A stretch of DNA of 64,000 nucleotides from Schmidtea nova (GCA_044892505.1 CM097882.1:295244001-295308000), one strand, 5' to 3'. Positions 28,821 to 56,903 are shown, counted from the stretch's first letter. Notes: generated by a model not told the origin, from the sequence alone. Made by a program: numbers and translations.

Positions 28821-29815
28821 ACCGATCCAAAAATCACAGACTAGAGACGTTTTACATTTCACTTACAATCAAGACTAAACTTTGATTTAAGTAACATTTC
28901 ATTTAACGAAGCGAGAATTTTTTGAAAAAACAGAATTCAAGTACGGAACGTAATTTTGATTGTTATTTTTTATGTACCCATGATTTTTATTTAATTAAAA
29001 GTTTATATGTAAAAGTTATTTTATTTTTTCATGGATTATTTTTAATGCATATAGCTATACTTCCTATGCTGCTCACGCGGCGAGGGAGTCCGAGTCGTCG
29101 TCGTGGGGCCTCAGGGTCTCACATGGCGGTTCAACCTTTTTATTATTTAATTTAGATGTGAAGTTTTATCTAGAAAATTTGATTGAATTTTTAGTCTAAT
29201 ACAGACCATTTGCAAATTATTTAATTTTGGGTTGCACAACGGACGAAGGTCGAGGGCCAAATATGTAGATTGCGGAGGGCGGATGGATAAGGAGGGACAC
29301 ACCATGGTAGGGCATGCTCAGTCTTTAAATTTTTGGTAAATTGAATCGAAAGGGAACCTCCCGCATGGAAAACAGTGAGCAACAACTAAAATAAATTTGA
29401 ATAATTTCGTTGGAATGAGAAAATCCAACGTAGTCCAAAGTCCGAATTCATTCGGAATCAGCATTTCGCCTACAAAATTTTAATATCGATAAATTCCGAT
29501 CGCGATGGAATGCGTCGGAAAATCCAAATTAAATTAGTTACTAAAAATAGGCCGATCGTCGTATATGACGCGGTTTCCCAAGTTATTCTCCGATCGCTGT
29601 ATATAGCGCGGAAATCTTGAGTAAATTTGATAATTCCTGAATGCTGTATATAGCACAGGACTAATTATGAACTCTTTATTCCGACCGTGGTAGATCACGG
29701 CGGAGAGAAATAAAATTAATCTTATTTTTTAACTGTTGTGATTATATGCAACATAATTAAATTATCAACGAATTTCCCCCTTAACTCATATTTATATCCA
29801 ATAAATGTAATATAG

Positions 29816-30295
29816 ATGTCGACAGCTGAACTTACAAATCAATTAACGCAACTACGGAATATGGAGCAAGGGAATCTGCGGAATGAAAATCTCTCGCAGC
29901 TCAAGGAACTACCAGCATCGATATTGCGAACCCTCAACTGCCAAATGTATCAGTGGCGACAGGGGTTTGGCCGAAAATGCCCGTTCTCGATATGGACAGG
30001 AGGGCACGACCAAATACTCTATCGAGGAGGACCGAACTGGCCGATTTCTCAAAGGCCGTACTCAAACAAATTTGGCCGACTTGTCGTACTGATCAAGGAC
30101 ACCGATGGACAGACAAGCCGTGTAATTTATTGGGGGCATATCCCTCGTCGAGAGCTGTGCCAATTGGGTCTGCACGAATTCCTGCCGCGAAAACCCTTCG
30201 GCAAGGAATGCCAGAAAGGACAACCTGCGTTTTCCTGGGCTCGTCTCCGACAGAAACCGATTAACAGCGAATTACATAGCCTGTTTCGGAGATAA
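29816..30295 (+). CDS. LTR-encoded ORF A, 159 aa, unknown function
   Basis: Intact ORF in GC-richer sequence; homologue at 62925..63346(-) shares LK.LPAS.LRTL..QM..WR..F...CPFSIW and RVIYWG.IP. Confidence 0.8.
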   Translation: MSTAELTNQLTQLRNMEQGNLRNENLSQLKELPASILRTLNCQMYQWRQGFGRKCPFSIWTGGHDQILYRGGPNWPISQRPYSNKFGRLVVLIKDTDGQTSRVIYWGHIPRRELCQLGLHEFLPRKPFGKECQKGQPAFSWARLRQKPINSELHSLFRR

Positions 30296-30479
30296 GAACT
30301 GATTGTCAAATCTTTCAAATTGTGATTAAATATTAATATTCAGCAGTGTTTTGTTATGTTGTTTTGAGTTTTGGTATTGTGTTTTTTAATAATTCATATT
30401 CGTAACCAAATAACCCTATGATCCGTTTCATTTTTCACATCATTTAATCATAGAGTAAATATCCTAAATACATTATAGA

Positions 30480-31076
30480 ATGAACCCAGATTTGATGCAG
30501 AAAGAATTGGAAAAGATGTGGCGGATTCGGAGAGCCCAGGACAAGGAATTGGGTCTCCTCAAGGCACAATTGATCAAAGCAGAGGCACAGATTGCATATT
30601 TGCGCAAAAGCTGGTTTGCTCCGGCCCGAATGAAGGAGCAAATCAGTAAAACCGAGCGCGCCCAACAGACTGCAGCCGATTACCAAATGGAATGGGAGGC
30701 TACAAAGATAGAACTCCGAAAATGCCTCCATTCCGTAACTGCCTCATACATCGAGAAGGAACTCAGAGAGCAAATCCGTCCGATTACGTACCAAGCTTGG
30801 ACGGCAGAAAAGAAGACAGTAAACTCCATTGGAACGGATGTCCCCGATTTAATTGAAAGTCGGAATGAGACAGCTCCTCCAGCCAATTCAACCACTTCAT
30901 CGGCGACTGCGCACCAGAAACGCAAGCGCATTGGGCAGAAACGGCGGAGACAGAGAAAATTATTTGCCCAGCAATTACAAATCCAAGTCGATGGTCTACA
31001 TCAGATGACTGAGGAAGCATTATTGACGGAGATTTTTCCTCCGGCGGGAGTTTTTACCGAACTCATTAAAAATTAA
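30480..31076 (+). CDS. LTR-encoded ORF B, 198 aa, coiled coil plus basic NLS-like tail
   Basis: Intact ORF with KRKRIGQKRRRQRK; homologue at 62168..62704(-). Confidence 0.8.
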   Translation: MNPDLMQKELEKMWRIRRAQDKELGLLKAQLIKAEAQIAYLRKSWFAPARMKEQISKTERAQQTAADYQMEWEATKIELRKCLHSVTASYIEKELREQIRPITYQAWTAEKKTVNSIGTDVPDLIESRNETAPPANSTTSSATAHQKRKRIGQKRRRQRKLFAQQLQIQVDGLHQMTEEALLTEIFPPAGVFTELIKN

Positions 31077-31550
31077 ATAAATTGTTGCATTGGCTTAAGA
31101 ATCTCATCGTTCATTTAAATTGATTTAATTAACTTTACCAATGATTAAATAAAGATAGAACAAAAGTATAAATTCAGTTTACAAAATATCGAATAGAGAT
31201 AATTAAATAATTAAGCGAGCATTCGTTGAAATACTTCTCGCAGACTGAGTAATGATAAAAATAAATTTTCTGAAAGATTAACACGGAATACCTAAGGGGA
31301 TGATTAAAGCGTAAGTCCTTCTAACGGCAGCAATGGACCCGTAAACATAAATGGGGAGTAGTACTAGCGATAGTGCTCACCTGCCCATCATTGTTTAACC
31401 ACCCTGCGCATCACCAACTTGATTATATAGGGAAATAATCAAGGGCGCTTGAGTGAAAAATTGCAATTTTATGCATGATCATGGATGAGGGATCCCTAGT
31501 CATTGTTAGAGCATTTTTCATCTAACCCCTCCATGAACCCAGCATAAATT

Positions 31551-31568
31551 TGGGGGCTCAGCCGGGAT
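31551..31568 (+). promoter_or_regulatory. Primer-binding site, tRNA-Pro type
   Basis: TGGGGGCTCAGCCGGGAT versus the canonical Pro PBS TGGGGGCTCGTCCGGGAT (16/18), 6 nt after the 5' LTR. Confidence 0.85.
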
Positions 31569-31876
31569 CAACTTCGTTTTATCGGAAAAAGGTGAATGTA
31601 AAATCTGCAGAGAGGTTTAAAATGCTCGTGTCAATTAATCTAATAAAAAACAGAAAGGTTATAATTAAATTTAAATTATTGTATAAAAATTAAAATAACA
31701 ACACGGTAGTGAACAAAAGTGAATTTAAAAGATTAAAATGCATGCATGGATAATTTGTCGGGACGACAATTTTCGGAAACACGGGGAGAGTTAAATATTA
31801 AAAGATACAAAACGAAACATATTACTACCTTAAAACGATAAAAATAATAGAGTTAAAACGATTATTTATTCAGTAA

Positions 31877-32338
31877 ATGGAGGAAAAACTGAAAGAAATC
31901 GAAGAATTTCTCAACACAGAAAGCGAAACATTAGGAACGATTGGCAAGAAAATAAACCGATTTAGAGAAATTGAATTTCAGGAACCCACAACACAGACTG
32001 AGGAAACAGATGAATTAATAAAGATAACAGAAAGAACAAGAAAAATCGACATAGAGACCCGCTACAAATGGTACAGAGCACGATTAGAAAATGCAGAACT
32101 AAACATTAGGTGCAGGCAAATAGAACAACGATTAACCTCAACTTATAATCGATGGAGGGCGCAGGGGGTAGAAGCAGCGAAAAAATACCGACAGTGCTAT
32201 ATATGTGAGGATAGCGAGATACAAATTATGTTTTTACCTTGTGGACATTTTCGTTTTTGTAAAATATGTGCCAGCAAGTGCGACCTATGTCCTATGTGCA
32301 ACCTGATGATAGACGATAAAATTATTGTATATTTATAA
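31877..32338 (+). CDS. Coiled-coil protein with C-terminal IAP-type C3HC4 RING (putative E3 ligase), 153 aa
   Basis: CYICEDSEIQIMFLPCGHFRFCKICASKCDLCPMC..I..KIIVYL-stop, the terminal RING layout of IAP/MDM2-like ligases; no BIR. Confidence 0.9.
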   Translation: MEEKLKEIEEFLNTESETLGTIGKKINRFREIEFQEPTTQTEETDELIKITERTRKIDIETRYKWYRARLENAELNIRCRQIEQRLTSTYNRWRAQGVEAAKKYRQCYICEDSEIQIMFLPCGHFRFCKICASKCDLCPMCNLMIDDKIIVYL

Positions 32339-32817
32339 TAAATAAAATTTGAATGGAATTTTATTGATTTATTGATAAGGAAATCATGGGTACAATTGTC
32401 ATATATAAATAATTTTTGAGCTACTGCAAAGTAGTCCGATAAGAATCCATTGGGAGGTACCGATTGATCAACTTATTCAAGGTGTATAGAAAGGGGCCCA
32501 TCGCAAATGTTGGAAAGTTTTTGTGATGTGATTGATCACCACATCCTGCATTAATGGACCAACGCGATCTTTTTGTATATTTTGGTTGGGGAGAGAGATA
32601 GGGAAATCTTGATGGAGTAAAGCGCGCATAAGAAAAATAAATAAAAAGTTGAAGCAGACTGATCAGGAATTAGTTATGATAGAATAGAGAGAAATGACAT
32701 TTTTGAAAGAATAAAAGGTGCATAGTCAGCTCGCATAGAGGTAGTTATAACTCAGCTGAGAAATTTTAATCGCTAGCGAAGTAGGGAATTGTGATTAACC
32801 GGTTAAGTAAAGTTTAT

Positions 32818-33080
32818 GAGATTTGTCCCTTGAAACAAAGGGTTAGGAGATTTGTCCCTTGAAACAAAGGGTTAGGAGATTTGTCCCTTGAAACAAAGGG
32901 TTAGGAGATTTGTCCCTTGAAACAAAGGGTTAGGAGATTTGTCCCTTGAAACAAAGGGTTATGAGATTTGTCCCTTGAAACAAAGGGTTATGAGATTTGT
33001 CCCTTGAAACAAAGGGTTATGAGATTTGTCCCTTGAAACAAAGGGTTATTAGCGGTTTGTCCCTTGAAAAAAAGGGTTGA
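32818..33080 (+). repeat. Tandem array of a 29-bp unit (8 near-perfect plus 1 degenerate)
   Basis: GAGATTTGTCCCTTGAAACAAAGGGTTA(G/T) starting at 32818, 32847 ... 33021. Confidence 0.95.
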
Positions 33081-33120
33081 GGCCAATGAGCCTTATTGAA
33101 TGACCTAGCTAGGCGTTATG

Positions 33121-33438
33121 GAGAGATTAAACTGAGGCCAATAGAGCCATTTGAGAGATTAAATTGAGGCCAATAGAGCCATTTGAGAGATTAAATTGAG
33201 GCCAAGAGAGCCATTTGAGAGATTAAATTGAGGCCAATAGAGCCATTTGAGAGATTAAATTGAGGCCAAGAGAGCCATTTGAGAGATTAAATTGAGGCCA
33301 ATAGAGCCATTTGAGAGATTAAATTGAGGCCAAGAGAGCCATTTGAGAGATTAAATTGAGGCCAATAGAGCCATTTGAGAGATTAAATTGAGGCCAATAG
33401 AGCCATGGGAGATATAAAATTGAGGCCAGAAGAGCCAT
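33121..33438 (+). repeat. Tandem array of a 32-bp unit (9 copies plus degenerate ends)
   Basis: GAGAGATTAAATTGAGGCCAA(T/G)AGAGCCATTT starting at 33121, 33153 ... 33377. Confidence 0.95.
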
Positions 33439-34051
33439 AGTGAATTATAGAGATATCCGGATAAATAGTAACAGGGGGAATATAGACCCATAGTATAATC
33501 GTCGACGAGATTTAGAGTAGTGCGCACCAGTAGTTAAGAGAATGCGAGTAAAGCTGATTATGCAACCTTAAGTAAAGCATGCAAGGAGAATAGTAAAAAT
33601 TTGGGCTGACCGGAGCAACCGGCAGAATGAGAAAAAACGATTGCTAGCAGGGAATAATGAGTAGAGATGATAAAATAATGATAAACGAGTCAGAAAGACT
33701 CAGGGAATTAGAGCGCTCGAGCGACCAATAAATTGGGAAACTGTGGGAAAAGTAACTGATTTGATAAAACATAGATAATTATTACGACGTAAATAGATAA
33801 TTGTGACCAGTCTATAGATAATTTAAATAGACTAAAAATAAAGGGGAATCTGGGAATTGGGAAATAATGAAAACCCAGTAATAAGTAATCCCGAAAGAAA
33901 GGGAATAAAAGCGCGACGATAACAATAATGTATCGTTGAGGACCTTTGTATTTTAGATATACAAATCAATCAAATCAATCAATCAAGCAAGAAGAATCAG
34001 AAAAACGATAAGAGATAGAACAGGAAAATTGAGTATACAAAAGTAATCCCC

Positions 34052-34867
34052 TTGAGAAAAGGAGCAAAGAGTGTCGTAGTAAAGCCAACGGAAAAGAAAG
34101 TCGGTAGCAACAGTAATAAAAAAGACAAAACTAGTACTACAACAAAATCAACAAAAAAGCAGAAAGCCGGCAAAGATAACCCACAAGGGAGTAAATCGAG
34201 GAAAATAATAAGAGATAAATCGATTACCGAAAACGATAAATTGTCAATAGTAAGCAACAGCTCAAGTAACAAAGAAAACCAAGCCGAACCCAAGGAGAAC
34301 CAACCAAGTGAAATAGAAAGCGACGAAACTAACAACTATAATATCGAAGAAATAGAACACGAGATAGAACAAGAAGGAGAAATCGACGAAACTAACAACG
34401 ACAATATTGAAGAAGTAGAAAACGAGGTAGAACAAGAGATAGAAATCAACGCGAGTGATAACGAAAGTATAATATCAGATAACGAAGGAATAAGAGAAAC
34501 AGAAAGCGATTCAAGCTCGAGTAAAACGGAAGACGAACATAACAACGAACTAGAAACAAGAGGAAACGAAAGTAAAATAACTCAAGACAGCGGAATTGAA
34601 ATGGGTGAACCAAGAGAAGAAATAAAGGATAAATTTTCAGGAGAACCGTTTAACGGAGATGCAAGTAAATTAGAAACCTTTTTAAAAGAATTTGGCATAT
34701 TCGTGGAAGTATGCAAATGGAAAGCTGAAACAACAGTAAGCAGAATTCAGTTATATTTGAAAGATAGTGCATTGGACCTATATTTGGAAGCGAAAAATGG
34801 TACCAATCCACCTACAAGCTGGACAGCGATAAAGGATTTTTTTCCAACAAACATTTGGAATAAATAA
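34052..34867 (+). CDS. gag: Gag N-terminal part (basic/acidic low-complexity region plus start of capsid), frameshifted into the next ORF
   Basis: EPFNGDASKLETFL..YLKDSALDLY..SWTAIKDFF. Removing one T from the T7 run at 34837-34843 gives DFFQQTFGINKVLSEAFIEFSMRKQ..NES...YA..L..LA, a continuous retrotransposon gag domain. First in-frame ATG is 34601. Confidence 0.85.
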   Translation: MRKGAKSVVVKPTEKKVGSNSNKKDKTSTTTKSTKKQKAGKDNPQGSKSRKIIRDKSITENDKLSIVSNSSSNKENQAEPKENQPSEIESDETNNYNIEEIEHEIEQEGEIDETNNDNIEEVENEVEQEIEINASDNESIISDNEGIRETESDSSSSKTEDEHNNELETRGNESKITQDSGIEMGEPREEIKDKFSGEPFNGDASKLETFLKEFGIFVEVCKWKAETTVSRIQLYLKDSALDLYLEAKNGTNPPTSWTAIKDFFPTNIWNK

Positions 34868-34868
34868 A

Positions 34869-37800
34869 GTGCTGAGCGAGGCATTCATAGAATTCTCAAT
34901 GAGGAAACAAAAGATGAATGAATCTAATGCGGTATACGCGAGCGAACTGAAAAAATTAGCAAAATCGGTATTCAAGGATGGAGGTCCAATAAACGAGGAG
35001 TTAATGGCAGCTATCTTCATAGGAGGATTAAGAAGACCCGACATAAGAGCACAAGTGGGATGTCAAGGATGCAAGACCATAGATCAAGCGTTAGAAACAG
35101 CTAACCGATTTGAATTACACATGATAGGAAGTGAGGGCAGAATTTATTTAGCCATGGACACAGCGCAAACCGAACCAGAGGTAAATCTCAACAATCACAT
35201 TCCAAATTCGCAACAATTAAACCGACCACCCCCTCAACGAAGGAATGAAGGAAATAAGGTGCAGAACTTTGAAAGCCAAAACAATTACAACCCTCAAAGA
35301 CAAACAAAACAATGTAAAACATGTGGAAAGTTAGGACACTGGCAGCAAGAATGCTATCAAAATTTGAATTGCGGAAAATGTGGAGTTAAAGGACACTCGG
35401 AAAGCAGATGTTCTACAATAATCTGTTTTAATTGCGGACGACCTGGTCACTATTCAAGAAATTGCGGACAAAAAAGTAATCAACGAGGAAACTGGCAGAG
35501 TAATGGGAACCGACCAAATTACGGAAATCAAGCAAATACTGTAAACCGACCAGATTATGGGAACCAACAAGTCAATAATAACAATAATCAGAACAAAACC
35601 ACCCCCAAAGAAATACATTTAATGCAAGAAGTCCAAAGATTGACGGAACTTATAAACAATACGACGAGAGGAAATCCGCAAACCAATCAACAGCAAATTA
35701 GCATGATGAGAAAAATAGAAAGCGAAAACGAACGATTGAATCGAGAAAGTCAAGCACGACACGCTCAGGAATGGGCAAGAATACAAAGAGAGGATGAACA
35801 AAAACAGCAAGAAAGAGAACGACAACCTCTAAGAATTAACATGCTAAGAGCAACAAACCAAACAGACACTCGCGAGAAAGAAACCACACTGGAAATGAAT
35901 TCGATAGACCCGAATCCAGCCGACAACGAAAGTCGAAAAGAAATAGTACAAAAAGATGAAGAAGTAGAAAAAGAAGCAGAAAAGGGAGAGGAAACCGAGA
36001 TAAACCAGGAAGAGAGAAGAAAAATTTGGAAAAAAGGAATGATGGTAATCATGCCCAACGACCATATGTTTCGATTCCAATATAACGCAAAAGAAAAGGT
36101 GGAAATACTGTTCAATAAAGTAAACCAGATGATTCCAGGAGTGACAAAACTGCCCAGAGAAGCGTTCTTACAAATAGGAGATGCACCATCAGTAAAATTA
36201 AAATTAACAGATACATGGGAAAACGTGGGAGTAACAGAGACAAAAAGAAATGTGATGAGAATTAAAGAAATAGAACCAGAAGAAATTCCACCACCAATAC
36301 GTCACGAAACCCGAATCCGGCGAATATTTGAAGGAAAAATGATAAGAAGACGTTTAAAAGAGATAGACGAGTTGGGAAAGAAAATGGGAAAAGTCGAAGT
36401 AATAGAGGACAAGAGTGAACCAACACCAGAAATTGACAAAAACGAACAAGAACCAACGGAGAATATACAAGGAGAAACGAACCAAACAGCACATATTAAT
36501 ATGTTAAGAAATACCACCAGAGAGTTTTCCGATGAAGAAGAAGATAGTGACATCAGTAGCCTAGCAGGAGACATATTAAATGAATCCGAAGACGAAAATA
36601 AAGAGAGAGAAGTAATAAAGACCTCAGAACCTACACAGATAAAAGTAGATGAAATCCAGAAATTACTAGATAACTCGCTAGAAGTAATATATAACGAAGA
36701 GTTCATGGACAAGAAACAATATCGGAAATTCATGAAAGCATTATTACAAATGAACTACAAAGAATGGTTACAAGACCGGGAAGTAGACATGTTGAATCGA
36801 TACGTAGGGAAATTAATAGAGGAACCACTCCTCAATTACACCATCTCAATAATAATAAATACGTCTACACCAAGAATCTGGATCAAAACTCCATTTACAG
36901 ATGATATCTACAGATGGGTAGAGGACAGACTAGGGAGCTCATATAAAAACAAATTCATCTATTCGCAGAATAGACTCGTAAAGAAAAAAACGCACTTAGT
37001 GGAAACAGGTATATGGCCAGGAGAAATAACTCTGTTATCAATATGTGATGAAAAAGAAGAAGAGAACCTACAAGAAGTTGCAAGGGAAGCAAACGCGTGC
37101 TTCGAACGGAGAATAAAACCACGGTTAGAATACGAGAAAGAACGAGTCTTACGAAAAAATCTAAATTCCCTGATAGAACAAATCATACCACAAGTCAAAA
37201 AACATAGAAAAGAGTTAATGAGAAGCGAATACGAGAAATTAAAACGATGTATTGAGTGCATACGTGACACAAGTCACACGAGATGGTCACAAATCTCACA
37301 CGATAAATTAATCGCAAAAATGGGAAAAACAATGTTCAGACAAGGGAAAATAACAGATCTAAAAATTTCGGTAGAATTACCTAATGAGGACACCAAAGAA
37401 ATTGAGGTGGTAGCGGATTGCACCATTAGGGAATTAATAAATGTCATCAACGAGACACTAGTGCAGAGAGAACCAGAAGACGAATGGGAAGACGACATAA
37501 TCATACAATACAACGAACATGTATTATGGGATCACGATGAGAGACGATTATATAAAATCGGTATATGGGATAATCACCAAACAATCCACGTTAGCAGAAT
37601 GGGCGATACACCAAGGGAAACTGCTAAAGATGAGAAAAGAGAACGGGAACGACGGAAAGAAGTTGTGCGTAAATTACAACAAATAGTAGAAATTTATCGA
37701 AATTGGCGAATTGGGCCAGAGTGGGAAAATGTACTAGAAGAACTCAATCTCAACAGACGAATACGAACACCCGTAGAAAAACAATGGAACGAGAAAGGAA

Positions 37801-44189: not shown

Positions 44190-44215
44190 TTAAATAAGGA
44201 ATAAATAAAGGATGG

Positions 44216-47200
44216 TTGTTAATACAAGACGGAGAAAAGAGATTGATGTGTTTACCGGAAAACAGAAGGAAAGAGATAATGATCCAGTACCATGATGGGA
44301 AATTAGGAGGCCATATGTCCGAGAAGAAGACAATAAATCGTATGAGACAAAAATATTATTGGCGAACAATGGAAGAAGATATAAAAGAATGGATTAAAAA
44401 TTGTCTAACTTGCGCAACCAGAAAGGATAGTGGGAAGAAATGGAAGAACCCGCTACAACCAATGCCGATACCAGCAGAACCAATGACAACTATAGCAATG
44501 GACGTAATAGGACCATTACCGGAAAGTCTAAACGGAAATATTTGTATATTAGTGATAACAGATTATCTGACAAAATTCCCGGAAGCATTTGCCATGCAAG
44601 ACCAAAAAGCAAAAACTGTAGCAAAAATTTTAGTGGAAGAAATATGTTGCAGATACGGAACCCCAAAACAAATACTCACAGACCAAGGAACTAATTTTAT
44701 GAGCGAGCTATTGAACGAGGTAACAAACTATTTCAGAATAGCAAAATTGAGAACTTCACCATATCACCCGCAAACGAATGGACAAACGGAGCGATTCAAT
44801 GGTACATTGATTAGAATGTTATCAAATTACGTCAGCAGACATCAAACTGATTGGGACGAATACATAAAATTATGTTTAATGGCATACCGAATGTCGATAC
44901 ATGCAGCAACAAAACTAAGCCCATTTCAACTTATGTATGGAAGAGAATGCAACATGCCCATAGATTTAGAGTATCAGCCACCATTATCGCAATATATGGA
45001 AGACGACGACTACATAACCAAATTCAAAGAAAGAATGCAGGAAATATGGAAAACGGCAGAACTCAACATTAAATTTTATCAGGAAAGTTATAAGGACTTA
45101 CACGATCAGAAGAAAAATGTTAAAGCGAACGATCTAAAACCAGGAGATTGGGTGATAATAGAAACTCCCGAAATAATACCAGGAACAGTTAAGAAACTCC
45201 AAAGACCTGGAAGAGGACCTTATGAAATTATATACAAAAAGGACAATAATGTCAAAGTTAAGCTAATAAATCGACCCTTAATACGACCCATATATGTAAA
45301 CACCTGCAGATGTAAAAAGGTGCCTAAAACGATAACTACAACACCAGAAAATCGAATAATAACTAGATCACAAACAGCCAGGATAAATATGCTCAGAGCT
45401 AATGTAACTGAAGACGACAAAGCAGAAATAAGGCAAAAAGAAATCAGAAACAAAGAGATCATATTGAAGGCGAGAGAAATAATGGGAAGATGGCATGTTA
45501 GAGACGAAGCAGGCATATCAAGGGATATTAGACATATGATTAGCCGTTACGCACAAGGATTACCAACCGAACCAATTATTTCTGAATTATTGGAAAAAAT
45601 CCCTGAAATACTCTTATTGAAAGATGTAGGAGGACAACCAGCCTTACATAATGCGATAGAGTGTAAAAACATTGAAAGAGCAAAAGAATTCCTAAAAATC
45701 GCAAAAGAAACAAACCAAAACTTGGACGTAGGGAATCGGGAACAAGAAACTCCATTAATGACAGCCGCAATCCACCAAGCAGATAAAGAAATGATAGACC
45801 TATTGATAAAAGCCCATTTCAGTTGGACAGAACGAGATAGAGAGGACAAAACAGTGCTAAATCACGTAATATGGAGTTCTCACCAACCAATGCTGAAATA
45901 CATAATAGCTAACTCCACTTGGGAGATAGACGAACTAGTTAAAGGAGACATTATCAAAGAGGCAATCAAAATTGGTAAATGCAACACGATCCGTAAGTTA
46001 GTCAAATGGAAACGACCAGAAGATGATACATGGGTCTTAGACATAAACGAAGTATACAGCGAAGGACAAAACGCGTTGTTAAGATATCTTCTGAAATTTA
46101 CTTGTGATCAGAAGACATTACTAACCTTATTAGACAGAGGAAACATAAACATCACAAAGAATGAAGAAGAATACAAATTCGATAAAGAGAAGGAAGCCTT
46201 ATTCAACAAGATTAGGAAATGGTGTGCGAAACCACTTGACAAACTAATAACATACAAAGACATAAACAATTTTAACGAGAAATACCAGACAATAGTAAGT
46301 GAGTACGAGGAATTAGTAAAAATCTTAAACCATCCCGAAAAATGCAAACAGGTTTTGGAGAAAAAAGAAAGAGAAAGTAACAAGAAACTCACACCACTCT
46401 TTAAAGCAGAAGCACCATACCAAGCTAGACTAGATGCGATACAAGAAAAAGCAAAAGAATTGTTACCAGAATTCGAGAATAGTAAACATGCACTGGAAAT
46501 ACTCGGTGCATTAGTTGAAAAAGTACACGCATACGCAAAAGGAACTTACAACGGAAACGACATAGTAATAATAAAAAAGGAGATGCCAGTAACATTTTTA
46601 CTACCAAAGGACGGAATAATGCCCATACATAGAGCTCTACGAAATGGCAAAGATAGAAAAGTAATGGAAATTGCAAGAGTAATGCAAAATTGCGGAAGCA
46701 ATATGAATATGATAGACGAGAAAGGAGATACACTTATGGTATTTGCAGCAAGGGCCAAAACGAAAACAAAGGTATTAGAGGAACTATACAAAGCAGGTGC
46801 AGGACTTACAGGAAAGACAGATAAAGATAATTCGATATTGGATGTAGCATTATTAACACACAATTGGGAAATGGTCAATTTCATTAAAACCGTCCCAAAT
46901 CAGGAAGAAATAGATCACCTAACTGATACGGTCAAGAAACCCAGTGTACTAGCAATGATGAACAACGTCGAACTAACAGAATCAATACTTACGTGGATAA
47001 ATCCTAATACTAACGAACCAGCATTCAGGATTAATAAATTTACAGAACATAACCAAAACTGGTGTATAAGAAGTGCCTTAATAACGTATAAATGGCCAGA
47101 GATATTGAAGATGTTTATGGAAAGAAAGGATCTAAGAATCACAAACAGCCCGAAAGAAGAAAAATACACAGGCAAATGGAAAGAATTGATGAAGACATAC

Positions 47201-48805
47201 GTCAACAATTGGATCAAGGCCAAAAAGGAAATCTTAGAATATAAATCCGCTAACAAAGCAATACCGGAGCAAGTAGAAACACAAGAATTTGAGGCAAGTA
47301 ATCTAACGACATTGGCATATGCAAAATTGATAGAAGAAATCAATGTCGAGGACGACATTTTCGACGAGCCAGGGGGAGATGACAATACAGATAGTGACGA
47401 CGGTAACAACTCAGAAAATCCAAGCGATCACGAACCACCCGATAAAGAGGAAAACGAGAGAAAAGACAAGAAACGAGACAAGGAAGGAAAGAAAGGTGAA
47501 GACGAAAAACAAAGAGATGAAGAGAGAGAACAAGGAACAAACGACCAAGGAGATAAAAATGACACCCAAAGAACAGGTTATAAATCAACCATAAAACCAT
47601 TCTTCAAACCAGAATTACTATTACTAACAATGATTATAACGTTAATTAATCCAAGTCAGGGAATGACATGTGAAGAAAGGGCAATAATACAAATAAAAAA
47701 CGCAAAAGGAATCGAACGAGTATGTTGGTCGAAAAAGGACAAAATCACGGAACAAAATAGCCCGATGGATTGCAGAATCTCAAAACACGAGCAAGAGATC
47801 ATAGAGATCAATGACTTAGATCTAGATACCTGGTACAAAATATGCACCGTTAGAAAACAAAAACATCCAAGATCACACAACACAATCGCATGTGCAAAAT
47901 ACCAAACACCTAAAGCAGCCATGACAATACAACAGTCACCCAAAGGAGATTACATCATCGGAAAATGTGGAAGAACAGAGACACAGAGAACAGAAAATAA
48001 AAAACCCCAGGCAATAGATAAGCAAACAACACCAACCCTACGAATTACAATAGAAAGGCCCGAAACAAGAATTGCCACAAACGAAACCGAAAGAGTGTCT
48101 TACCAAATGGAAGTATTATGCTTAGCACTCATACTAATAATAATAAAACGATTAGAGGAAGGAATAGAAATTGAAACTATGACAATAACAGAAGTGGAAG
48201 ATACACAGAACACTAACATAAAATGTTGGGCGAGGAATAACGAGGAAATCGGCGTAAATGAAATAAGGAAAAGTCGAAAACCCACAACAAACAAAGTAAT
48301 TAAAGTATCCGAAGTAAGAGCAGACAAGACGTACAAACTATGCCTATTAGAAAAAGAGACAAACAAGAAAGGTACCACAAAATGTAAAACATTCCAACCT
48401 GGAGAAGTAATAAAGTTCAGAAGGAGAACGAGGAAGAGAAATAAACAAATCAAACAGAAAATAAACATAACATTAGAAATAAAAGAGATAGAACCAAATG
48501 TGAAAGGAGTATGCTGGAGGAAGTACGAAAAAGAAACAAATGAAAGAAAGACACCACAATGTCGAACAAGCACAGGAGCAACGACGATACAAATAAAAGG
48601 TTTAGAAAGTAAACAAACTTATGAAATATGTCTCGTAAAGAAAAATGATCAGATAACGATAAACGACCTAGAATGCGGAATATACACCACTTCATCCGGA
48701 ACAAGAACTAAAACGATAACACGAAAAAATAAAAGAAGACAACGAAACAAAGGGAAACCGAAGTACACCACTACCTTTAAAAAAAAAACAATAAACAACC
48801 GATAA
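44216..48805 (+). CDS. Polyprotein continuation: integrase, ankyrin repeats, acidic linker, internal signal, FN3-like repeats
   Basis: HDGKLGGH..CLTC zinc-binding domain; MDVIGP, TDQGTNF, NGQTERFN (DDE); GPY; ankyrin clusters 45629-45910 and 46610-46891; signal-like LLLLTMIITLINPSQG (47615-47662). Confidence 0.93.
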   Translation: MLIQDGEKRLMCLPENRRKEIMIQYHDGKLGGHMSEKKTINRMRQKYYWRTMEEDIKEWIKNCLTCATRKDSGKKWKNPLQPMPIPAEPMTTIAMDVIGPLPESLNGNICILVITDYLTKFPEAFAMQDQKAKTVAKILVEEICCRYGTPKQILTDQGTNFMSELLNEVTNYFRIAKLRTSPYHPQTNGQTERFNGTLIRMLSNYVSRHQTDWDEYIKLCLMAYRMSIHAATKLSPFQLMYGRECNMPIDLEYQPPLSQYMEDDDYITKFKERMQEIWKTAELNIKFYQESYKDLHDQKKNVKANDLKPGDWVIIETPEIIPGTVKKLQRPGRGPYEIIYKKDNNVKVKLINRPLIRPIYVNTCRCKKVPKTITTTPENRIITRSQTARINMLRANVTEDDKAEIRQKEIRNKEIILKAREIMGRWHVRDEAGISRDIRHMISRYAQGLPTEPIISELLEKIPEILLLKDVGGQPALHNAIECKNIERAKEFLKIAKETNQNLDVGNREQETPLMTAAIHQADKEMIDLLIKAHFSWTERDREDKTVLNHVIWSSHQPMLKYIIANSTWEIDELVKGDIIKEAIKIGKCNTIRKLVKWKRPEDDTWVLDINEVYSEGQNALLRYLLKFTCDQKTLLTLLDRGNINITKNEEEYKFDKEKEALFNKIRKWCAKPLDKLITYKDINNFNEKYQTIVSEYEELVKILNHPEKCKQVLEKKERESNKKLTPLFKAEAPYQARLDAIQEKAKELLPEFENSKHALEILGALVEKVHAYAKGTYNGNDIVIIKKEMPVTFLLPKDGIMPIHRALRNGKDRKVMEIARVMQNCGSNMNMIDEKGDTLMVFAARAKTKTKVLEELYKAGAGLTGKTDKDNSILDVALLTHNWEMVNFIKTVPNQEEIDHLTDTVKKPSVLAMMNNVELTESILTWINPNTNEPAFRINKFTEHNQNWCIRSALITYKWPEILKMFMERKDLRITNSPKEEKYTGKWKELMKTYVNNWIKAKKEILEYKSANKAIPEQVETQEFEASNLTTLAYAKLIEEINVEDDIFDEPGGDDNTDSDDGNNSENPSDHEPPDKEENERKDKKRDKEGKKGEDEKQRDEEREQGTNDQGDKNDTQRTGYKSTIKPFFKPELLLLTMIITLINPSQGMTCEERAIIQIKNAKGIERVCWSKKDKITEQNSPMDCRISKHEQEIIEINDLDLDTWYKICTVRKQKHPRSHNTIACAKYQTPKAAMTIQQSPKGDYIIGKCGRTETQRTENKKPQAIDKQTTPTLRITIERPETRIATNETERVSYQMEVLCLALILIIIKRLEEGIEIETMTITEVEDTQNTNIKCWARNNEEIGVNEIRKSRKPTTNKVIKVSEVRADKTYKLCLLEKETNKKGTTKCKTFQPGEVIKFRRRTRKRNKQIKQKINITLEIKEIEPNVKGVCWRKYEKETNERKTPQCRTSTGATTIQIKGLESKQTYEICLVKKNDQITINDLECGIYTTSSGTRTKTITRKNKRRQRNKGKPKYTTTFKKKTINNR

Positions 48806-51069
48806 GCCAAGAAGTTACGACAAAACCCGAGAAAAAGACATCAGCAACTCTAACATTATGGAAAATAGAGAATAAAACATTAGAAATATGTTGGATAATA
48901 GTTCAGAAACATATAAGAAGACAATCAAGAGAGTGCAGAAAAACAAATAAAGAAATCAAGATCGAAAAACTACAATTTAATAGCGAGTATGAAGTATGTA
49001 CAATAGAAAAAACGGACGCACTAGGAAACCAACAAGAAAGATGCGAAACCTACTATACACCAGCGAACGCAACATCAAAAGGAATAACAAGGAAACTCGA
49101 ATTCAGGGAACTAAGCCAAACGAATGAACAAATGGACACAGAAAAAACAATAACCGACCCTCAAGCAAAATGGACACCCGAAGAAGTTATCAAGGAAGTC
49201 AAAAGAAAGCAAGAGGAACGGGAACAATTAATGAGAAAACTAAAGGGACAATACGGAATAATGTTCAACCAAAGCGAATCTATGCAAACAGACGAGAATA
49301 AAGAAATTAAAGAACTAATTGGCTTAGGAATACTAACAGCAACCATACCAGTAATAATCGCGTTATCAGCTATATGGCTACGCAAGATAAGCCCAAGAAA
49401 ATCAACAACCCAATGGCTAAATATAGATAATACAAGCCATGGAGTAGAAATACTAGAAGAAAAAGCACGAGAAGAACCAAATAAGAAAGAAGCGAAAAGC
49501 GGAAAACTAGGAATAAACAACAAAGACAAGGAAATAAAAGAGATTAAAGGCGAAGAGAAAAAATATGAAAGGCGAACCAGAAGCCTACCGCAGAGTTCAA
49601 AATGGTTGGGTCTAACAATAATATTGACATTAATCAATAGGGAAGAAGCAATAAACCCACAGACAGGGATAAAAGTAATAAATGTCCAGGAAGTCGAGAA
49701 AATATGTTGGTATAGAGAAGAGGAACCAATTGGAGAAAATAACCCACTAAAATGCATAATCAGAAAATCCGACCAGGATATCGTACGAATAGAAGAAATG
49801 GATGGAGGAACCATGCATCGGATATGCATAATAGAAAAGGAAAAGAAGTCGGGGCTACCTAAGACAGTCGTATGCCAGAAATATGAAACGCCTAGACTTG
49901 AATGGTATAGAGTAAAACCAACAAAGAAAGAAATCAAAAACACAATAGATCAACCAGCAACTCAGATAAAAAACATAACGGATAAACCAAGAGAAGGGGA
50001 GAGAAGCATAAATAACACGAGAAAAGGAGCATCACCCCAACAAGATGTCGTATGCATAGCGTTAATAATAGCAATGTCCAAACGTATCAACAAAGGAATA
50101 ACAATAGAACAAATGGCCATGACAATAAGGAGAAAAGGCCGGAGTAGCAACAAAATATGCTGGGGATGGTACAACGAACAAAAAGAATACCAAGTTCAGA
50201 CAAGCGACGAATCACGAACAAACAAGGAAACCGAAATACAAGAAATACAAATGGACGGAGAAGGAAGTATATGTATATGGGAGAAAGGAATCCAAGAAGA
50301 TCAACCCGGAATAGAAAAGTGCAAGACATTCCAAAAAGGAGAAATTCTGAAATTCGATGAAGAAGAATTAACCAAAACAGAAAGAACTCTGACATTAACA
50401 GGACTCGATCAGACAGTTAAAGGAATATGTTGGACAAAGCATAACCCAGAAGGGGAAGAAGACAATTTAACCCACTGTAGAGAAATAAAGAATAAAGAAA
50501 AAGTCGAATTAAAGAAAATGGAAGTAAATAGGACATACGCGATATGTACCTTCACCAGAAAAGGTTCAGAAAAACCAGAATGCGGATTATATCAGATCTC
50601 AGAGAAACTACAACAACAGATCGAACCAGGAAACGTGGAAAACCGAACAAAAGAAAATAACGTCAAAAAACTACTAAATCGCCATTGGTCTACACAAGAA
50701 GTAATGAACAAAGTTAAGAGTCAAGTACAGAAGGAGAAGAAGCCAGAGGCTCAAACCCAAAATGAGATTAAAGCGAATCAGAATAAAATCAAAGCAACAA
50801 ACCGTGGAAAAACAGTAATAGGATTAATCAGTATAGGAATATTAATAGCATATGGGATAATGACGACAAGCATGATAATATATTGGAGATACAGAAAGAG
50901 AAACAAAGCGACAGCCATACAATGGCCAGATATTAAAATTATGAAGCAAAGAATAGAAATACCAGAAGAGATACAGCAAGAATTCCAAAGAAGAACGAAA
51001 GGTAAAGAATTCTGGAAACAAATAGAAGATGAAGAAAGATACGAGGAAAAGACGATAATGATGGTATAG
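48781..51069 (+). CDS. Polyprotein tail: FN3-like repeats and TM segments; -1 frame relative to the previous ORF
   Basis: The frame is open from 48781, 117 codons before the track's ATG at 49132, and that part encodes another repeat (TLEICW..KLQFNSEYEVCT). The junction is an A10 run at 48779-48788. TMs at 49315-49380 and 50815-50886. Confidence 0.85.
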   Translation, partial: KKNNKQPISQEVTTKPEKKTSATLTLWKIENKTLEICWIIVQKHIRRQSRECRKTNKEIKIEKLQFNSEYEVCTIEKTDALGNQQERCETYYTPANATSKGITRKLEFRELSQTNEQMDTEKTITDPQAKWTPEEVIKEVKRKQEEREQLMRKLKGQYGIMFNQSESMQTDENKEIKELIGLGILTATIPVIIALSAIWLRKISPRKSTTQWLNIDNTSHGVEILEEKAREEPNKKEAKSGKLGINNKDKEIKEIKGEEKKYERRTRSLPQSSKWLGLTIILTLINREEAINPQTGIKVINVQEVEKICWYREEEPIGENNPLKCIIRKSDQDIVRIEEMDGGTMHRICIIEKEKKSGLPKTVVCQKYETPRLEWYRVKPTKKEIKNTIDQPATQIKNITDKPREGERSINNTRKGASPQQDVVCIALIIAMSKRINKGITIEQMAMTIRRKGRSSNKICWGWYNEQKEYQVQTSDESRTNKETEIQEIQMDGEGSICIWEKGIQEDQPGIEKCKTFQKGEILKFDEEELTKTERTLTLTGLDQTVKGICWTKHNPEGEEDNLTHCREIKNKEKVELKKMEVNRTYAICTFTRKGSEKPECGLYQISEKLQQQIEPGNVENRTKENNVKKLLNRHWSTQEVMNKVKSQVQKEKKPEAQTQNEIKANQNKIKATNRGKTVIGLISIGILIAYGIMTTSMIIYWRYRKRNKATAIQWPDIKIMKQRIEIPEEIQQEFQRRTKGKEFWKQIEDEERYEEKTIMMV

Positions 51070-51194
51070 GGGCGGATTATGACTGTAAATAATAGTGTAA
51101 ATAACAAAGCATTACCGTAATAGTATGGATATCGATATTATAAAAATTGTAAAAAGATAGAAAAACAAAGTAAATGATGTATATAATTTAGAAA

Positions 51195-51551
51195 ATGACC
51201 GAACAGGACGAAACAACTGAAATAACTATGGCTATGAGATGGAAAGCACAATGTGATTTATTAGTACGAACAGTCAACTCATTACAGAACCAATTAGCGG
51301 AAAGACAAATGTTATTATCAGAAAGTTATAACAACTGTTTCGAACAATTACACAGAATAGAGGAACAACAAAGAGCGATAACTGAACTCACCAGAGAAAA
51401 TCAAACGATAAGCAACACCAATCAAAGACAAGCAATAGAAATAAACCATTTAACACGAGGAGAAAGAGAAGGATCCGAAGAAGGATGGATGAGTTGGGTA
51501 ATAAATAGATTAAACAACGAAGCGGAACCAGATTCAACGAATGAGCCATAG
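51195..51551 (+). CDS. Accessory coiled-coil protein, 118 aa
   Basis: Intact ORF with heptad-like LQNQLAERQ..LTRENQ pattern and the element's A-rich codon usage. Confidence 0.75.
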   Translation: MTEQDETTEITMAMRWKAQCDLLVRTVNSLQNQLAERQMLLSESYNNCFEQLHRIEEQQRAITELTRENQTISNTNQRQAIEINHLTRGEREGSEEGWMSWVINRLNNEAEPDSTNEP

Positions 51552-51645
51552 ATAAATAAAGCGGAAAACTGTAAATATGTAAAAAATAAAAACAAGAAAA
51601 ATCCAAAAATAAATGACAAGTCGAATGTATATATTATTGTAGAAA

Positions 51646-53022
51646 ATGGACAGAGAAGAACGAATAATCGAAATTTTGAGACTAGAAAACAGAAAATGGA
51701 GCAAGAGGCTCACCTGCGGGAAATGTAGTAATTTACTACGAGAACCCAGACAAACGATATGTGGATGTAGAATATGTACAAAATGTATACAAGAATTAGA
51801 GGTAACAGGAATAACAACATGCCCAGAATGTAAAGAAGGAAGAATAGTGTTGAACGAAACTAGAACGGACAAAGCAACTCAAAGAGAAATTATGAGCACC
51901 ACAACGGAGTGCGTAAATACACCTTGTGTATGGCAAGGACAGATAAGCAATCTAGAGAACCATATGGAGAAATGCGAGGAAAAGAAAGCCGAATGCGAGA
52001 AATGCCAACAGACAATAACTCTAAAGAAGAGAGAACAACACAAGGAAGAATGTAAAGAAGAAGAAATCGCATGCGAGTATTGTGAAACTCGAGAAACGAG
52101 GAGAAAAATCGAAGAGGAACACTTAAATATAACAGAGGAGAAAGTATGCAGACAATATGTAAGTAAATGTCCAAACAATTGCGAAATAACAGAAGAAGTA
52201 AAATTACATGAACATTGGAAAGTATGTACCGAAAGACCAAGAGAATGTCCATATAACAAACAGGGATGCAAAGAAAAGCGGACGCGGCAATCAATGAAAC
52301 AACACCTAGAAGAAGCAGCACTAACGCATGTAGAAATGACAAACGAAACAACAAAAGAAACGGAACAGACACTCCAGAAATTAGAAAAAGAAGTAGAATC
52401 ACATAAGATAATGATAAGTTTACTACTAGAAACAAGAGAGCAGTTTGAACTAACTCGCGAAAGAATGGAAAAGAAAATAATAGCCATAGAAGAATTAGGA
52501 AAAGGAATGAAAATACAATATAATCAATTAATACGAGAAATTGACGAAAGAAGGGACTTACCAATCGCACCTTACCTATGGAAAGTAACAGATTTCAGAG
52601 ACAAACTAGCAGAAGCCAGAAATATGACGAAAACAGCAGTAATAAGCCCACCATTTTATTTATGGAAAAACGGGGTTAAAATAAGATTGAAAGTATACCC
52701 AAATGGAGACGGAAGAGGACAAGGAACACAAGTGTCAATATTCTTCTCACTATGTAAAGGAGAATACGATGACCTAATAGAATGGCCCTTGAAAGTAGGA
52801 GTCATTATCAGAATCAAAAGTATGGGAAAACCAGTAGAAAAGTTCTTTGAAACAGACAAACATTCGAGTACGAGCGAAAAACCAACAACAGAATGCGGAC
52901 TAGCAGCAGGAGAACCAATGTTTATAAGGAAGGAAAACCTATGGGAGCGACTATATGCAGACACGCTATACATAGAGATGGAGAGGCATGAGAAAACAGA
53001 CAGAAAAGGATGGTTGGCGTAA
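51646..53022 (+). CDS. Full-length TRAF-like protein (RING, TRAF zinc fingers, coiled coil, MATH), 458 aa
   Basis: RING CGKCSNLLREPRQTICGCRICTKC..CPEC; CVNTPCVWQG..HMEKC; MATH YLWKV..SPPFY..RLKVYPNGDG.G.GTQVSIFF.L.KGEYD.LIEWP. Confidence 0.95.
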   Translation: MDREERIIEILRLENRKWSKRLTCGKCSNLLREPRQTICGCRICTKCIQELEVTGITTCPECKEGRIVLNETRTDKATQREIMSTTTECVNTPCVWQGQISNLENHMEKCEEKKAECEKCQQTITLKKREQHKEECKEEEIACEYCETRETRRKIEEEHLNITEEKVCRQYVSKCPNNCEITEEVKLHEHWKVCTERPRECPYNKQGCKEKRTRQSMKQHLEEAALTHVEMTNETTKETEQTLQKLEKEVESHKIMISLLLETREQFELTRERMEKKIIAIEELGKGMKIQYNQLIREIDERRDLPIAPYLWKVTDFRDKLAEARNMTKTAVISPPFYLWKNGVKIRLKVYPNGDGRGQGTQVSIFFSLCKGEYDDLIEWPLKVGVIIRIKSMGKPVEKFFETDKHSSTSEKPTTECGLAAGEPMFIRKENLWERLYADTLYIEMERHEKTDRKGWLA

Positions 53023-53134
53023 TGAAGGAAGTAACCATGTAAATAAAATGTATAGAAACAATATGAATTAACAAATAATCAAAAACAATAAAAATAAAAA
53101 ATGATTAAATATTCTTTTATCTGTAATTATAGAA

Positions 53135-54196
53135 ATGGGAAATATAGAAGTAACCTTACAAGAAGTAACAGTACATCAAGACGAAATGATCAGAAATCAC
53201 ATGGAGCGGATTGGGATATGGATTCATGCCTATTATCGAAAACAGGAGGAATTGGAAAGACAAACCCAAGCACTAAGAGAAGCCGAGAAAACGAATCAAA
53301 GAAGTCGAGAAAAAATAGAAGAAGTCTACAAACTGCTAAGGCAACAAAATGAATACTACAAAGAGATGATGAAAGAGCGACGAGAGGATAGAGATAGACA
53401 ACAGATAAAAACCGACCATAAGATTCAGTCAATCACAGAACAAGCAAGATATTGGAAGAAAGAGGCAAAAGACTCTTACAAGGAAGCAAGGGAGATAATA
53501 GAACGAACAGCGTACAGCGATGATTGGAAACTGTTTAAAGAGATCGATGAATTAAAAGAGGAATTAGGGCAAAAGATCAGTCAAGAAGCGTCAAATAAAG
53601 TATGGAGTAAGAAAAGACAACAATTTATCAGAGAACAAGCCAAGAAAATAAAAGAATTAACTTATCAAGTACAAAGAATGGGAGAAGATTTAGCCAATCA
53701 AGAACAATTAAAAGGTATGCTGACCGGAATGTGGAATCACAAGGAAGAAAACATGAAAAGAGACATAAATGGATATCAAGGAGTGATCACCCAGAAGAAA
53801 ATAGAATTAAAAAGAACTAAAGAAAGAATGGAAGAAACGAGGCAGAGTTATGAAGAGAACATAACAAATTTGACAAAAGAAAACGAAGAACTGAGAAAGA
53901 AGTTGGCAGAAAAACCAACACCAATAAAAGAAACAAGTATCACAGCAGCAGTGACCGAAATGATGGAGAAGGAAGAGAGAGAGAAAAAATTGGCAGAACT
54001 AGAAAAACAAATTGAAACCCTAACAGAACAGGCGAACTATCTGGAATACTTATTAGATGAAGAGATCCAGATATCCCACACATACCGAGAAGAAGTCGAA
54101 ATGTGGAGGAGCACGGTAATATGGATGCCACTCCCCATAAATCAGGTGGAACCTCAAGACGAAGGTTTTTACGAACCCAACGAAACCCTTGTATAA
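53135..54196 (+). CDS. Accessory long coiled-coil protein, 353 aa
   Basis: Intact E/K/R/Q-rich helical ORF with no catalytic motif visible. Confidence 0.8.
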   Translation: MGNIEVTLQEVTVHQDEMIRNHMERIGIWIHAYYRKQEELERQTQALREAEKTNQRSREKIEEVYKLLRQQNEYYKEMMKERREDRDRQQIKTDHKIQSITEQARYWKKEAKDSYKEAREIIERTAYSDDWKLFKEIDELKEELGQKISQEASNKVWSKKRQQFIREQAKKIKELTYQVQRMGEDLANQEQLKGMLTGMWNHKEENMKRDINGYQGVITQKKIELKRTKERMEETRQSYEENITNLTKENEELRKKLAEKPTPIKETSITAAVTEMMEKEEREKKLAELEKQIETLTEQANYLEYLLDEEIQISHTYREEVEMWRSTVIWMPLPINQVEPQDEGFYEPNETLV

Positions 54197-54271
54197 ATGT
54201 GCGAAAACCAAGTGTAAATAAATTATGTAAAATAAAAAGTGTCAAGCTGTATTGACCGATGTATAAAAGAA

Positions 54272-54841
54272 ATGAGAAAGCTCGCAATAGCAACACTCCT
54301 ATGGTTAACAACCATTACCCTACAGAGAGAAGATCTACAACTAACCGAAACCCAATTACGAGTTCTACCCGACAAAACCTATCAGAAAGTAGACAGCCTA
54401 ATCGAAGAAGTAATTAAAGAAATCAACGAATTCCGACAGAAATTCCCCCACAATCAAGATCGTCAAATCCAACAAATCTTCGATAATCAACAACTGAAAC
54501 TAGAAGAAACCCGAAAAATCCTGAAAGAAGGTAGAGAACCCATAAAAAGCCTATCCCAAGCTGAAATAGAATATCAAGAGAAATGGATCATAGCAATCAT
54601 CATAATCCTAGCAGTCAGCACAACTATCATCGCAATCACAATCCTAATTGCCTCATATAGAATAAAAATCCTAAAACAAAAGCAGAAAATCTACAACCAA
54701 ACCTCCAGACGAGATAACCGAGCTCAAAGACGAATAAGGAGCCATCTCAACCACATTCAAACCCACTACGAGCTACAAATGATCAACGAGAGGACCCGAA
54801 CTCAACCCCAAGCGAGCCAGACGATCGAACAAATTGTATAA
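54272..54841 (+). CDS. Accessory type I membrane protein (signal, short helical ectodomain, TM, basic tail)
   Basis: ATG 54272 MRKLAIATLLWLTTITL; TM WIIAIIIILAVSTTIIAITILIAS followed by YRIKILKQK. The track start 54239 is a GTG. Confidence 0.75.
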   Translation: MRKLAIATLLWLTTITLQREDLQLTETQLRVLPDKTYQKVDSLIEEVIKEINEFRQKFPHNQDRQIQQIFDNQQLKLEETRKILKEGREPIKSLSQAEIEYQEKWIIAIIIILAVSTTIIAITILIASYRIKILKQKQKIYNQTSRRDNRAQRRIRSHLNHIQTHYELQMINERTRTQPQASQTIEQIV

Positions 54842-56423: not shown

Positions 56424-56903
56424 ATGTCGACAGCTGAACTTACAAATCAATTAACGCAACTACGGAATATGGAGCAAGGGAATCTGCGGAATGAAAATCT
56501 CTCGCAGCTCAAGGAACTACCAGCATCGATATTGCGAACCCTCAACTGCCAAATGTATCAGTGGCGACAGGGGTTTGGCCGAAAATGCCCGTTCTCGATA
56601 TGGACAGGAGGGCACGACCAAATACTCTATCGAGGAGGACCGAACTGGCCGATTTCTCAAAGGCCGTACTCAAACAAATTTGGCCGACTTGTCGTACTGA
56701 TCAAGGACACCGATGGACAGACAAGCCGTGTAATTTATTGGGGGCATATCCCTCGTCGAGAGCTGTGCCAATTGGGTCTGCACGAATTCCTGCCGCGAAA
56801 ACCCTTCGGCAAGGAATGCCAGAAAGGACAACCTGCGTTTTCCTGGGCTCGTCTCCGACAGAAACCGATTAACAGCGAATTACATAGCCTGTTTCGGAGA
56901 TAA
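56424..56903 (+). CDS. LTR ORF A, 3' LTR copy
   Basis: Translation identical to 29816..30295. Confidence 0.8.
   Translation: MSTAELTNQLTQLRNMEQGNLRNENLSQLKELPASILRTLNCQMYQWRQGFGRKCPFSIWTGGHDQILYRGGPNWPISQRPYSNKFGRLVVLIKDTDGQTSRVIYWGHIPRRELCQLGLHEFLPRKPFGKECQKGQPAFSWARLRQKPINSELHSLFRR

Follow-up and report, generated by a model that had tools for sequence, protein, structure and literature searches.

The stretch of DNA analysed here, referred to as the window, comprises 64,000 nucleotides (64 kb) of Schmidtea nova (GCA_044892505.1 CM097882.1:295244001-295308000). It contains a long terminal repeat (LTR) retrotransposon at 28437-58152 whose accessory open reading frames (ORFs) begin just behind splice-acceptor-like signals, and the subject of the analysis is how those ORFs are expressed. 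Positions are those of the window, and features lie on its + strand unless otherwise stated. The element is 29,716 bp long. Its 5' LTR (28437..31544; 3,108 bp) has TG...CA ends and is identical over the whole 3,108 bp to the 3' LTR (55045..58152), and a target-site duplication, CATA, flanks the element at 28433-28436 and 58153-58156. Two ORFs without a Pfam match lie within the LTR, ORF1 (29816..30295, 159 aa) and ORF2 (30480..31076, 198 aa). These are followed by a primer-binding-site-like sequence at 31551..31568, which may resemble a tRNA-Pro site, and by a RING-finger ORF (31877..32338, 153 aa, PF13920). The polyprotein (34601..51069), which is in pieces in the window copy, comprises gag with CCHC, env, protease (PR), reverse transcriptase (RT), RNase H (RH), integrase (IN), ankyrin and C-terminal modules. 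By Pfam, zf-CCHC, the fusion glycoprotein, PR, RT and RH fall in one ORF, with IN and ankyrin repeats in the next; the env fusion glycoprotein (PF24664, Monjiviricetes-type) was placed at 1827-2167, between zf-CCHC and RVP, in that single ORF. Four ORFs make up the 3' array. The first (51195..51551, 118 aa) is coiled-coil-like, and the second (51646..53022, 458 aa) is TRAF-like with zf-TRAF and MATH domains, for which a protein search returned distant TRAFs only. The third is a coiled-coil ORF (53135..54196, 353 aa) with no relative in a protein search. The last (54272..54841, 189 aa) has a hydrophobic N-terminus and a transmembrane-like stretch, as read from the sequence. At least 115 close copies of the element are present in the host genome. 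Identity of the LTRs despite the broken polyprotein suggests a recent insertion that was mobilised in trans.

On its architecture, the element is placed as a Burro-like Ty3/gypsy retrotransposon of a planarian, because its size of ~30 kb, env position, PR-RT-RH-IN order and ankyrin, RING and MATH/TRAF modules match the description of Burro in the relevant part of PMC6431247. There, Burro (GYPSM1) of Dugesiidae planarians is a giant Ty3/gypsy element of ~30 kb with an internal region of up to 25 kb. Shared features are a mononegavirus-type fusion env in frame between gag and protease, together with ankyrin, RING, MATH/TRAF, tandem repeats and accessory ORFs; a BIR+RING gene is found in a second, sister family, termed family B. 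Section 7 of PMC6431247 is silent on accessory-ORF expression and mentions no LTR ORFs. A further difference is that the window element's family gave no Pfam match to BIR or BCL2-like motifs, in a comparison made with Pfam only and no profile-profile search.

In the initial annotation, YAG acceptors just 5' of the accessory ATGs had been proposed to yield single-gene mRNAs from one operon-like transcript, either by spliced leader (SL) trans-splicing or by multi-acceptor cis-splicing. The seven accessory ATG contexts were located as claimed (YAG-to-ATG gaps of 0, 1, 3, 3, 3 and 2 nt, and an AAG at 2 nt), as were the 3' ORF spacers of 125, 94, 112 and 75 nt. The same applied to the contexts at 63346 and 62704, which are homologous ORF1 and ORF2 acceptors in a diverged LTR of a sister subfamily (61780..64000, - strand, extending beyond the window end). 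The chance rate of such contexts was computed. YAG stands 0-3 nt upstream of 6/7 accessory ATGs, whereas elsewhere in the element it does so at 67/580 ATGs (P=1.5e-5, or 1e-6 by local shuffles). Controls taken as the first ATG after a stop gave 41/293 (P=4.6e-5), and the result was P=1.8e-3 when all 11 long-ORF starts were counted. An AG-free zone of at least 21 nt precedes all seven sites, as against a zone of at least 20 nt at ~20% of 815 YAGs, and the T count at -23..-4 is 7-12 at these sites, against a mean of 3.9.

Acceptor 1 (29793..29815) has TAG directly 5' of the ORF1 ATG, and acceptor 2 (30456..30478) has TAG 1 nt from the ORF2 ATG. Of 12 diverged LTR loci (37-50% protein identity), 9 have CAG as the ORF2 acceptor and 2 have AAG; in the remaining one it is spliced away. 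Acceptor 3 (31851..31873), before the RING-finger ORF, is CAG in the window and TAG in 5/16 matched copies; its homologue in family B has YAG directly 5' of the ATG in 4/4 copies. In the array, acceptor 5 (51169..51191) is TAG, within TTTAG in 20/20 close copies; acceptor 6 (51620..51642) is TAG, within TGTAG in 20/20; and acceptor 7 (53110..53132) is TAG, within TATAG in 30/30. The weak acceptor 8 (54247..54269) is AAG, kept as AAAG in 29/30 close copies, with 1 unmatched. The acceptor signals are non-random and conserved. An additional acceptor, predicted for a gag-pol mRNA, lies at 33935..33956 (TTTGTATTTTAG) and is followed by ~640 nt without ATG before gag; 4.2 ATGs were expected in this stretch (P=0.003), and it is ATG-free in all 13 copies with both ends matched. 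A frame of ~580 nt at 34019-34600, without ATG and upstream of the first gag ATG, is open in 13/13 matched copies. It could encode a non-AUG N-terminal extension or merely be a purine-rich 5' untranslated region (UTR).

A predicted LTR promoter at 28785..28821 comprises CCAAT/ATTGG boxes and a TATA box, TATAAATA, at 28814. The TATA context is the same in the 15 family copies shown, and a recognisable TATA is present in 22/29 diverged LTR loci. A predicted AUG-free leader exon (28843..28949), whose start is put ~30 nt past the TATA, contains no ATG; the leaders of 16 diverged LTRs contain 6 ATGs against 23.3 expected. The major splice donor, GTAATT at 28950..28955, is GTAA(T/A) in 15/15 family copies shown, and a donor-like GTA follows the TATA by 125-155 nt in 16/22 diverged LTRs that have one. 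The initial annotation overlooked this donor, as it did the pre-gag acceptor at 33956 and the TGTAAATA motif anchored to stops that is described below. The donor it had offered instead, GTAAGT at 31311..31316, is present in the window copy, but 11/16 family copies have ATAAGT there and family B lacks the GT. That candidate was rejected; it falls within a conserved motif close to where the LTR ends. The motif, CCTTCTA.CGG.AGC...GGACCC (31311-31400), is kept across families with otherwise unalignable LTRs and could be a packaging or priming structure. No Rfam match was obtained for 28400-35000.

Spliced forms are preserved in genomic DNA, in three copies with exact GT..AG removals. One of them (L208/L246), a complete solo LTR, has a TAGG duplication. 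The leader of this copy aligns with that of L213 to the last base before GTAATC and continues right after the CAG of L215, which is the ORF2 acceptor. In another (L232/L245), the leader ends at the same point and continues at the base immediately following the TAG in the diverged LTR of the window, which is the ORF1 acceptor; this copy is cut off after ORF1. One homologous donor, corresponding to that at 28950, is joined to two acceptors in these sister-subfamily LTRs. The remaining copy, L258, joins window 47576 to 51192, and the 3,615 nt removed start with GT and end with AG. Its two LTRs agree at 99.9% over 1,530 nt, its primer-site side is intact and it is ~96% identical to the window. The internal donor, GTTATA at 47577..47582, was used in this one genomic copy and is GTTATA in 5/7 covering loci. 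An exon-side search gave 62 matches (control, 11). Thirty of these were examined at locus level; the remainder, 32 in number, were assessed on the matched sequence, and two of them are family copies in which CAG replaces TAG. Only two other distinct deletions of more than 150 nt were seen in 80 loci, both without GT..AG ends, and the odds of a chance deletion like that in L258 are near 1 in 1,000 as a rough estimate, not a computed one. Acceptor 51191 of the 3' array works in cis, via an internal non-consensus donor. Among the contig joints listed (contigs of unrecorded kind), 15/57 and 15/23 were read, and none was a leader or GT..AG join. The proposal that the acceptors yield single-gene mRNAs is supported, directly so for three of them by these copies. 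Of its two routes, multi-acceptor cis-splicing is favoured, but from the donor at 28950 and not from that at 31311.

Family B provides a comparison at ~30% protein identity (4 copies read). It measures ~21-22 kb between LTR starts and has at least 150 copies with near-identical LTRs. No match to gag, RT or integrase core was found in it. Its retained genes are RING, TRAF, an IAP gene of BIR+RING type and another five accessory ORFs. The ORFs at 51195 and 53135 have homologues in it; ankyrin and 49132-like parts lie within one ORF. The YAG-to-start gaps at its nine starts are 0, 6, 2, 1, 5, 1, 3, 3 and 17 nt, which places YAG within 3 nt of 6/9 and within 6 nt of 8/9 starts, compared with 33/373 other ATGs within 3 nt.

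The spacers of the array carry a further signal, located relative to the preceding stop codon. TGTA(A/C/T)ATA occurs 7 times in the four window spacers against 0.37 expected, with 0 in the coding parts counted, and 7 times in family B against 0.70 expected. In the window, TGTAAATA was found at 51084..51091, 51570..51577, 53038..53045 and 54213..54220, at 14, 18, 15 and 16 nt past the stop, respectively. TGTA starts 14-18 nt past the stop in 10/11 spacers of 75-272 nt (6/7 in family B alone; P=6e-10 by shuffling and 2e-6 by uniform placement), compared with 0/7 after the other stops shown. The distance is constant to the stop and not to the acceptor, and a fixed stop distance points to a role at termination. 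TGTA(A/T)ATA matches what we take to be the Pumilio/PUF element. The motif might be a protein-binding site that acts at translation termination, and perhaps shields mRNAs with long 3' tails from nonsense-mediated decay (NMD). The likeliest guess for its role, by analogy with the Rous sarcoma virus RNA stability element, is protection from NMD. That element, as described in parts of PMC4764554 and PMC5580461, is also a protein-binding element (PTBP1) after an internal stop that protects from NMD. The likeness is an analogy only: the window element's motif is PUF-like, 8 nt long and set at a constant 14-18 nt from each internal stop. The initial annotation had noted AATAAA-like signals in the spacers. 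AATAAA is there at chance level: the four spacers hold 8 where 5.1 were expected (P=0.11), the 125-nt one having none, and in family B the count is 10 against 13.0 expected.

The favoured reading, to which a probability of about 0.72 was assigned, is that a single LTR promoter and a single leader devoid of AUG serve eight alternative acceptors, giving mRNAs with one translated ORF each. The LTR promoter would drive a transcript whose short AUG-free leader ends at donor 28950. This leader would be cis-spliced to one of the eight acceptors, each just 5' of a start codon, and each mRNA would be read for a single protein. To serve the internal genes, the leader would reach 31873, 33956, 51191, 51642, 53132 and 54269 over introns of 3-25 kb. 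Gag-Pol would be translated from a spliced mRNA, because three ORFs precede gag-pol on the genomic RNA. Leader joins beyond 31551 would delete the primer-binding site; mRNAs spliced past it would leave no DNA copy, and absence of such joins from DNA would thus be expected. Transcription start, leader-to-array splicing, 3' ends and motif role are the parts of the scheme that we infer.

Several points weigh against this reading. The leader joins were seen in sister subfamilies and not in the window element's own family, for which leader-side patterns gave 0 matches and then 7, none of them spliced. The sole 3'-array join uses the non-consensus internal donor GTTATA and is present in one copy only. 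No leader-to-array join was found; a search at acceptor 53132 gave 2 matches, neither from the element, and no join was seen at 51642 among the exon-side search matches. Introns of 22-25 kb would need to skip several acceptors. Copies within a family are not independent, and the family B count includes a TRAF start set at an internal ATG by homology plus acceptor, so that 5/8 is the safer figure. The distance range of 12-19 nt used in the TGTA test was picked after the data had been seen. Lastly, 4/10 stop-anchored motifs extend as TGTAAATAAA, which includes AATAAA, and a poly(A) role is therefore a rival for the motif.

Matches to the SL were sought in the host genome. The 3' end of the 42-nt SL (motif from Fig. 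S6 in the supplement of PMC10899757, which was used in part) had 1,136 exact matches, and the control had 0; with 1,136 Schmidtea-type SL matches, the host is therefore a planarian that trans-splices. In all 30 SL loci read, the SL stands between a conserved segment on its upstream side and mRNA-like sequence on its downstream side. In the loci read further (8/8), that segment spans ~100 nt and mostly follows a run of (ATT)n or (AAT)n. The loci have the look of an extensive SL-mRNA retrocopy family with a shared adaptor in front, in which many members have multiplied. The SL matches are for the most part copies of mRNAs headed by the SL and can serve as a natural collection of junctions; the reading frames of the host SL retrocopies were too decayed for frame inference. 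One SL retrocopy (L149:1518-3034) carries a NUDIX/DUF4743 gene, a T-rich spacer and then a second reading frame, which we take to resemble a proteasome alpha subunit; it is possibly a host operon transcript. Junctions of the SL with the element were not found in any of the 24 SL+N0-1+AAATG matches (24 of 24 read), nor by eye in the first 100 of 222 SL+N0-1+ATG matches, giving 0/124 in total, a negative that is weak because the same few host mRNAs recur among the matches. The SL AUG would share its reading frame with the ATG at 7/15 starts, with no bias, and at acceptor 31873 it would run straight into TAA. An SL AUG as Gag start was rejected, the frame from 33956 being closed until ~60 nt downstream in 13/13 matched copies.

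A hybrid of the two routes was considered, in which the LTR ORFs are cis-spliced whereas polyadenylation within every spacer cuts the 3' array, and the host SL is trans-spliced to each downstream ORF. The array would then be a true operon in a retrotransposon, with SL-released cistrons and TGTAAATA as a new intercistronic or termination-coupled signal, beside cis-spliced LTR genes. This fits a host that trans-splices and spacers of 75-272 nt in the element and family B, which fall within the operon limit of 300 nt between co-oriented genes used in the relevant part of PMC12582326. The AATAAA within TGTAAATAAA and the missing leader-to-array join also speak for it. Against it stand the 0/124 junctions (weakly, for the reason given), the lack of AATAAA enrichment, the 7/15 offsets in the SL frame with the TAA at 31873, and a TGTA motif spaced from the stop and not from the acceptor. 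Acceptor 51191 was used in cis, although a portion of PMC12582326 describes cis-splicing as rare at operon-resolving acceptors; the one join, in a single copy, gives no rate. The operon and SL route of the initial annotation thus gained no positive evidence, and both the hybrid account and a true operon in the array are considered unlikely.

If cis-splicing of the leader is granted, the mRNAs may end differently. With alternative last exons, each mRNA would be polyadenylated in the next spacer and TGTAAATA would be part of the 3'-end signal, an account that differs from the favoured reading at the 3' end only. Some motifs include AATAAA, ATTAAA followed by a GT-rich tract lies on the 3' side of LTR ORF1, and the median planarian 3' UTR is ~176 nt in the data taken from PMC5068929. 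AATAAA is nonetheless at chance level, according to the same part of PMC5068929, planarian poly(A) signals have no UGUA on their upstream side, and a nuclear signal would not be expected at a fixed stop distance. On the condition that cis-splicing holds, this variant falls somewhat short of even odds. An internal promoter for each accessory ORF, or ribosome reinitiation, would make the YAGs of the 3' array incidental. Such promoters are known for env in Oikopleura Tor3b/4b (PMC4402516), and a TATA-like TGTATATA occurs near two ATGs. It lies just 17-20 nt upstream of the ATG, however; two families have retained the YAGs, their T-rich stretches and the AG-free zones, and one array acceptor was used, all of which make this explanation very improbable. 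Chance in AT-rich DNA has in its favour that the sites are few and that YAG lies within 3 nt of 7-14% of background ATGs. Against it, every control gave P between 1e-5 and 2e-3, the pattern recurs in family B and three copies have exact GT..AG removals; its probability is close to negligible, and the spliced genomic copies already contradict it.

Complex retroviruses such as HIV-1 and foamy viruses use one 5' major donor and many acceptors. As these viruses are generally understood, the element shares with them a short leader, one major donor and acceptors just before accessory starts, and its expression scheme is likely to resemble theirs. It differs in being a Ty3/gypsy element, in having a predicted acceptor for gag-pol itself and in carrying its genes as separate cassettes with ~100-nt spacers. 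Two of its acceptors lie inside the LTR, so that spliced LTRs were copied back into DNA, unlike in complex retroviruses. Tor3a of Oikopleura is likewise an invertebrate LTR element with an LTR-driven subgenomic env mRNA made by cis-splicing, as far as it is described in part of PMC4402516. The scheme is likely to exceed the single spliced env of Tor3a, with eight predicted acceptors as against one spliced gene. SL-resolved operons of flatworms and nematodes also have co-oriented genes less than 300 nt apart, an acceptor before each ATG and a host SL (PMC12582326, in part); in the window element no SL junction was found, cis joins are present and AATAAA is not enriched. No published account of Burro splicing or of SL use by LTR elements was found by title or start of abstract; the primary Burro papers and their supplements lay outside this scope and may already cover it.

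Expression of the accessory genes matters because regulators of apoptosis and ubiquitin are among the genes of Burro elements, one of which reportedly supports planarian stem cells (Burro1 B-IAP, Lee et al. 2026, as cited in a passage of PMC13465017). Burro1 RNA rises after smedwi-2 RNAi (PMC8532177). A leader-plus-acceptor cassette, if true, would explain gain and loss of whole genes by the element, and family B has kept seven cassettes in its 3' array despite loss of the RT and integrase core. Were gag-pol mRNA spliced and so devoid of the primer-binding site, translation would be separated from packaging, which may favour mobilisation of defective copies. The fixed 14-18 nt between internal stops and the motif offer a sharp and testable lead towards control of mRNAs that is coupled to the stop codon.

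Between the RING-finger ORF and gag, 32751-33502 holds two tandem arrays with units of 29 and 32 nt, and family B has tandem repeats at the equivalent position. The insertion target at 27558-28460 is a decayed ORF pair with the look of a hAT-type transposase; the first of these ORFs has no Pfam match. A long inverted repeat at 19650-20834 (337 nt, 97%) resembles a miniature inverted-repeat transposable element (MITE).

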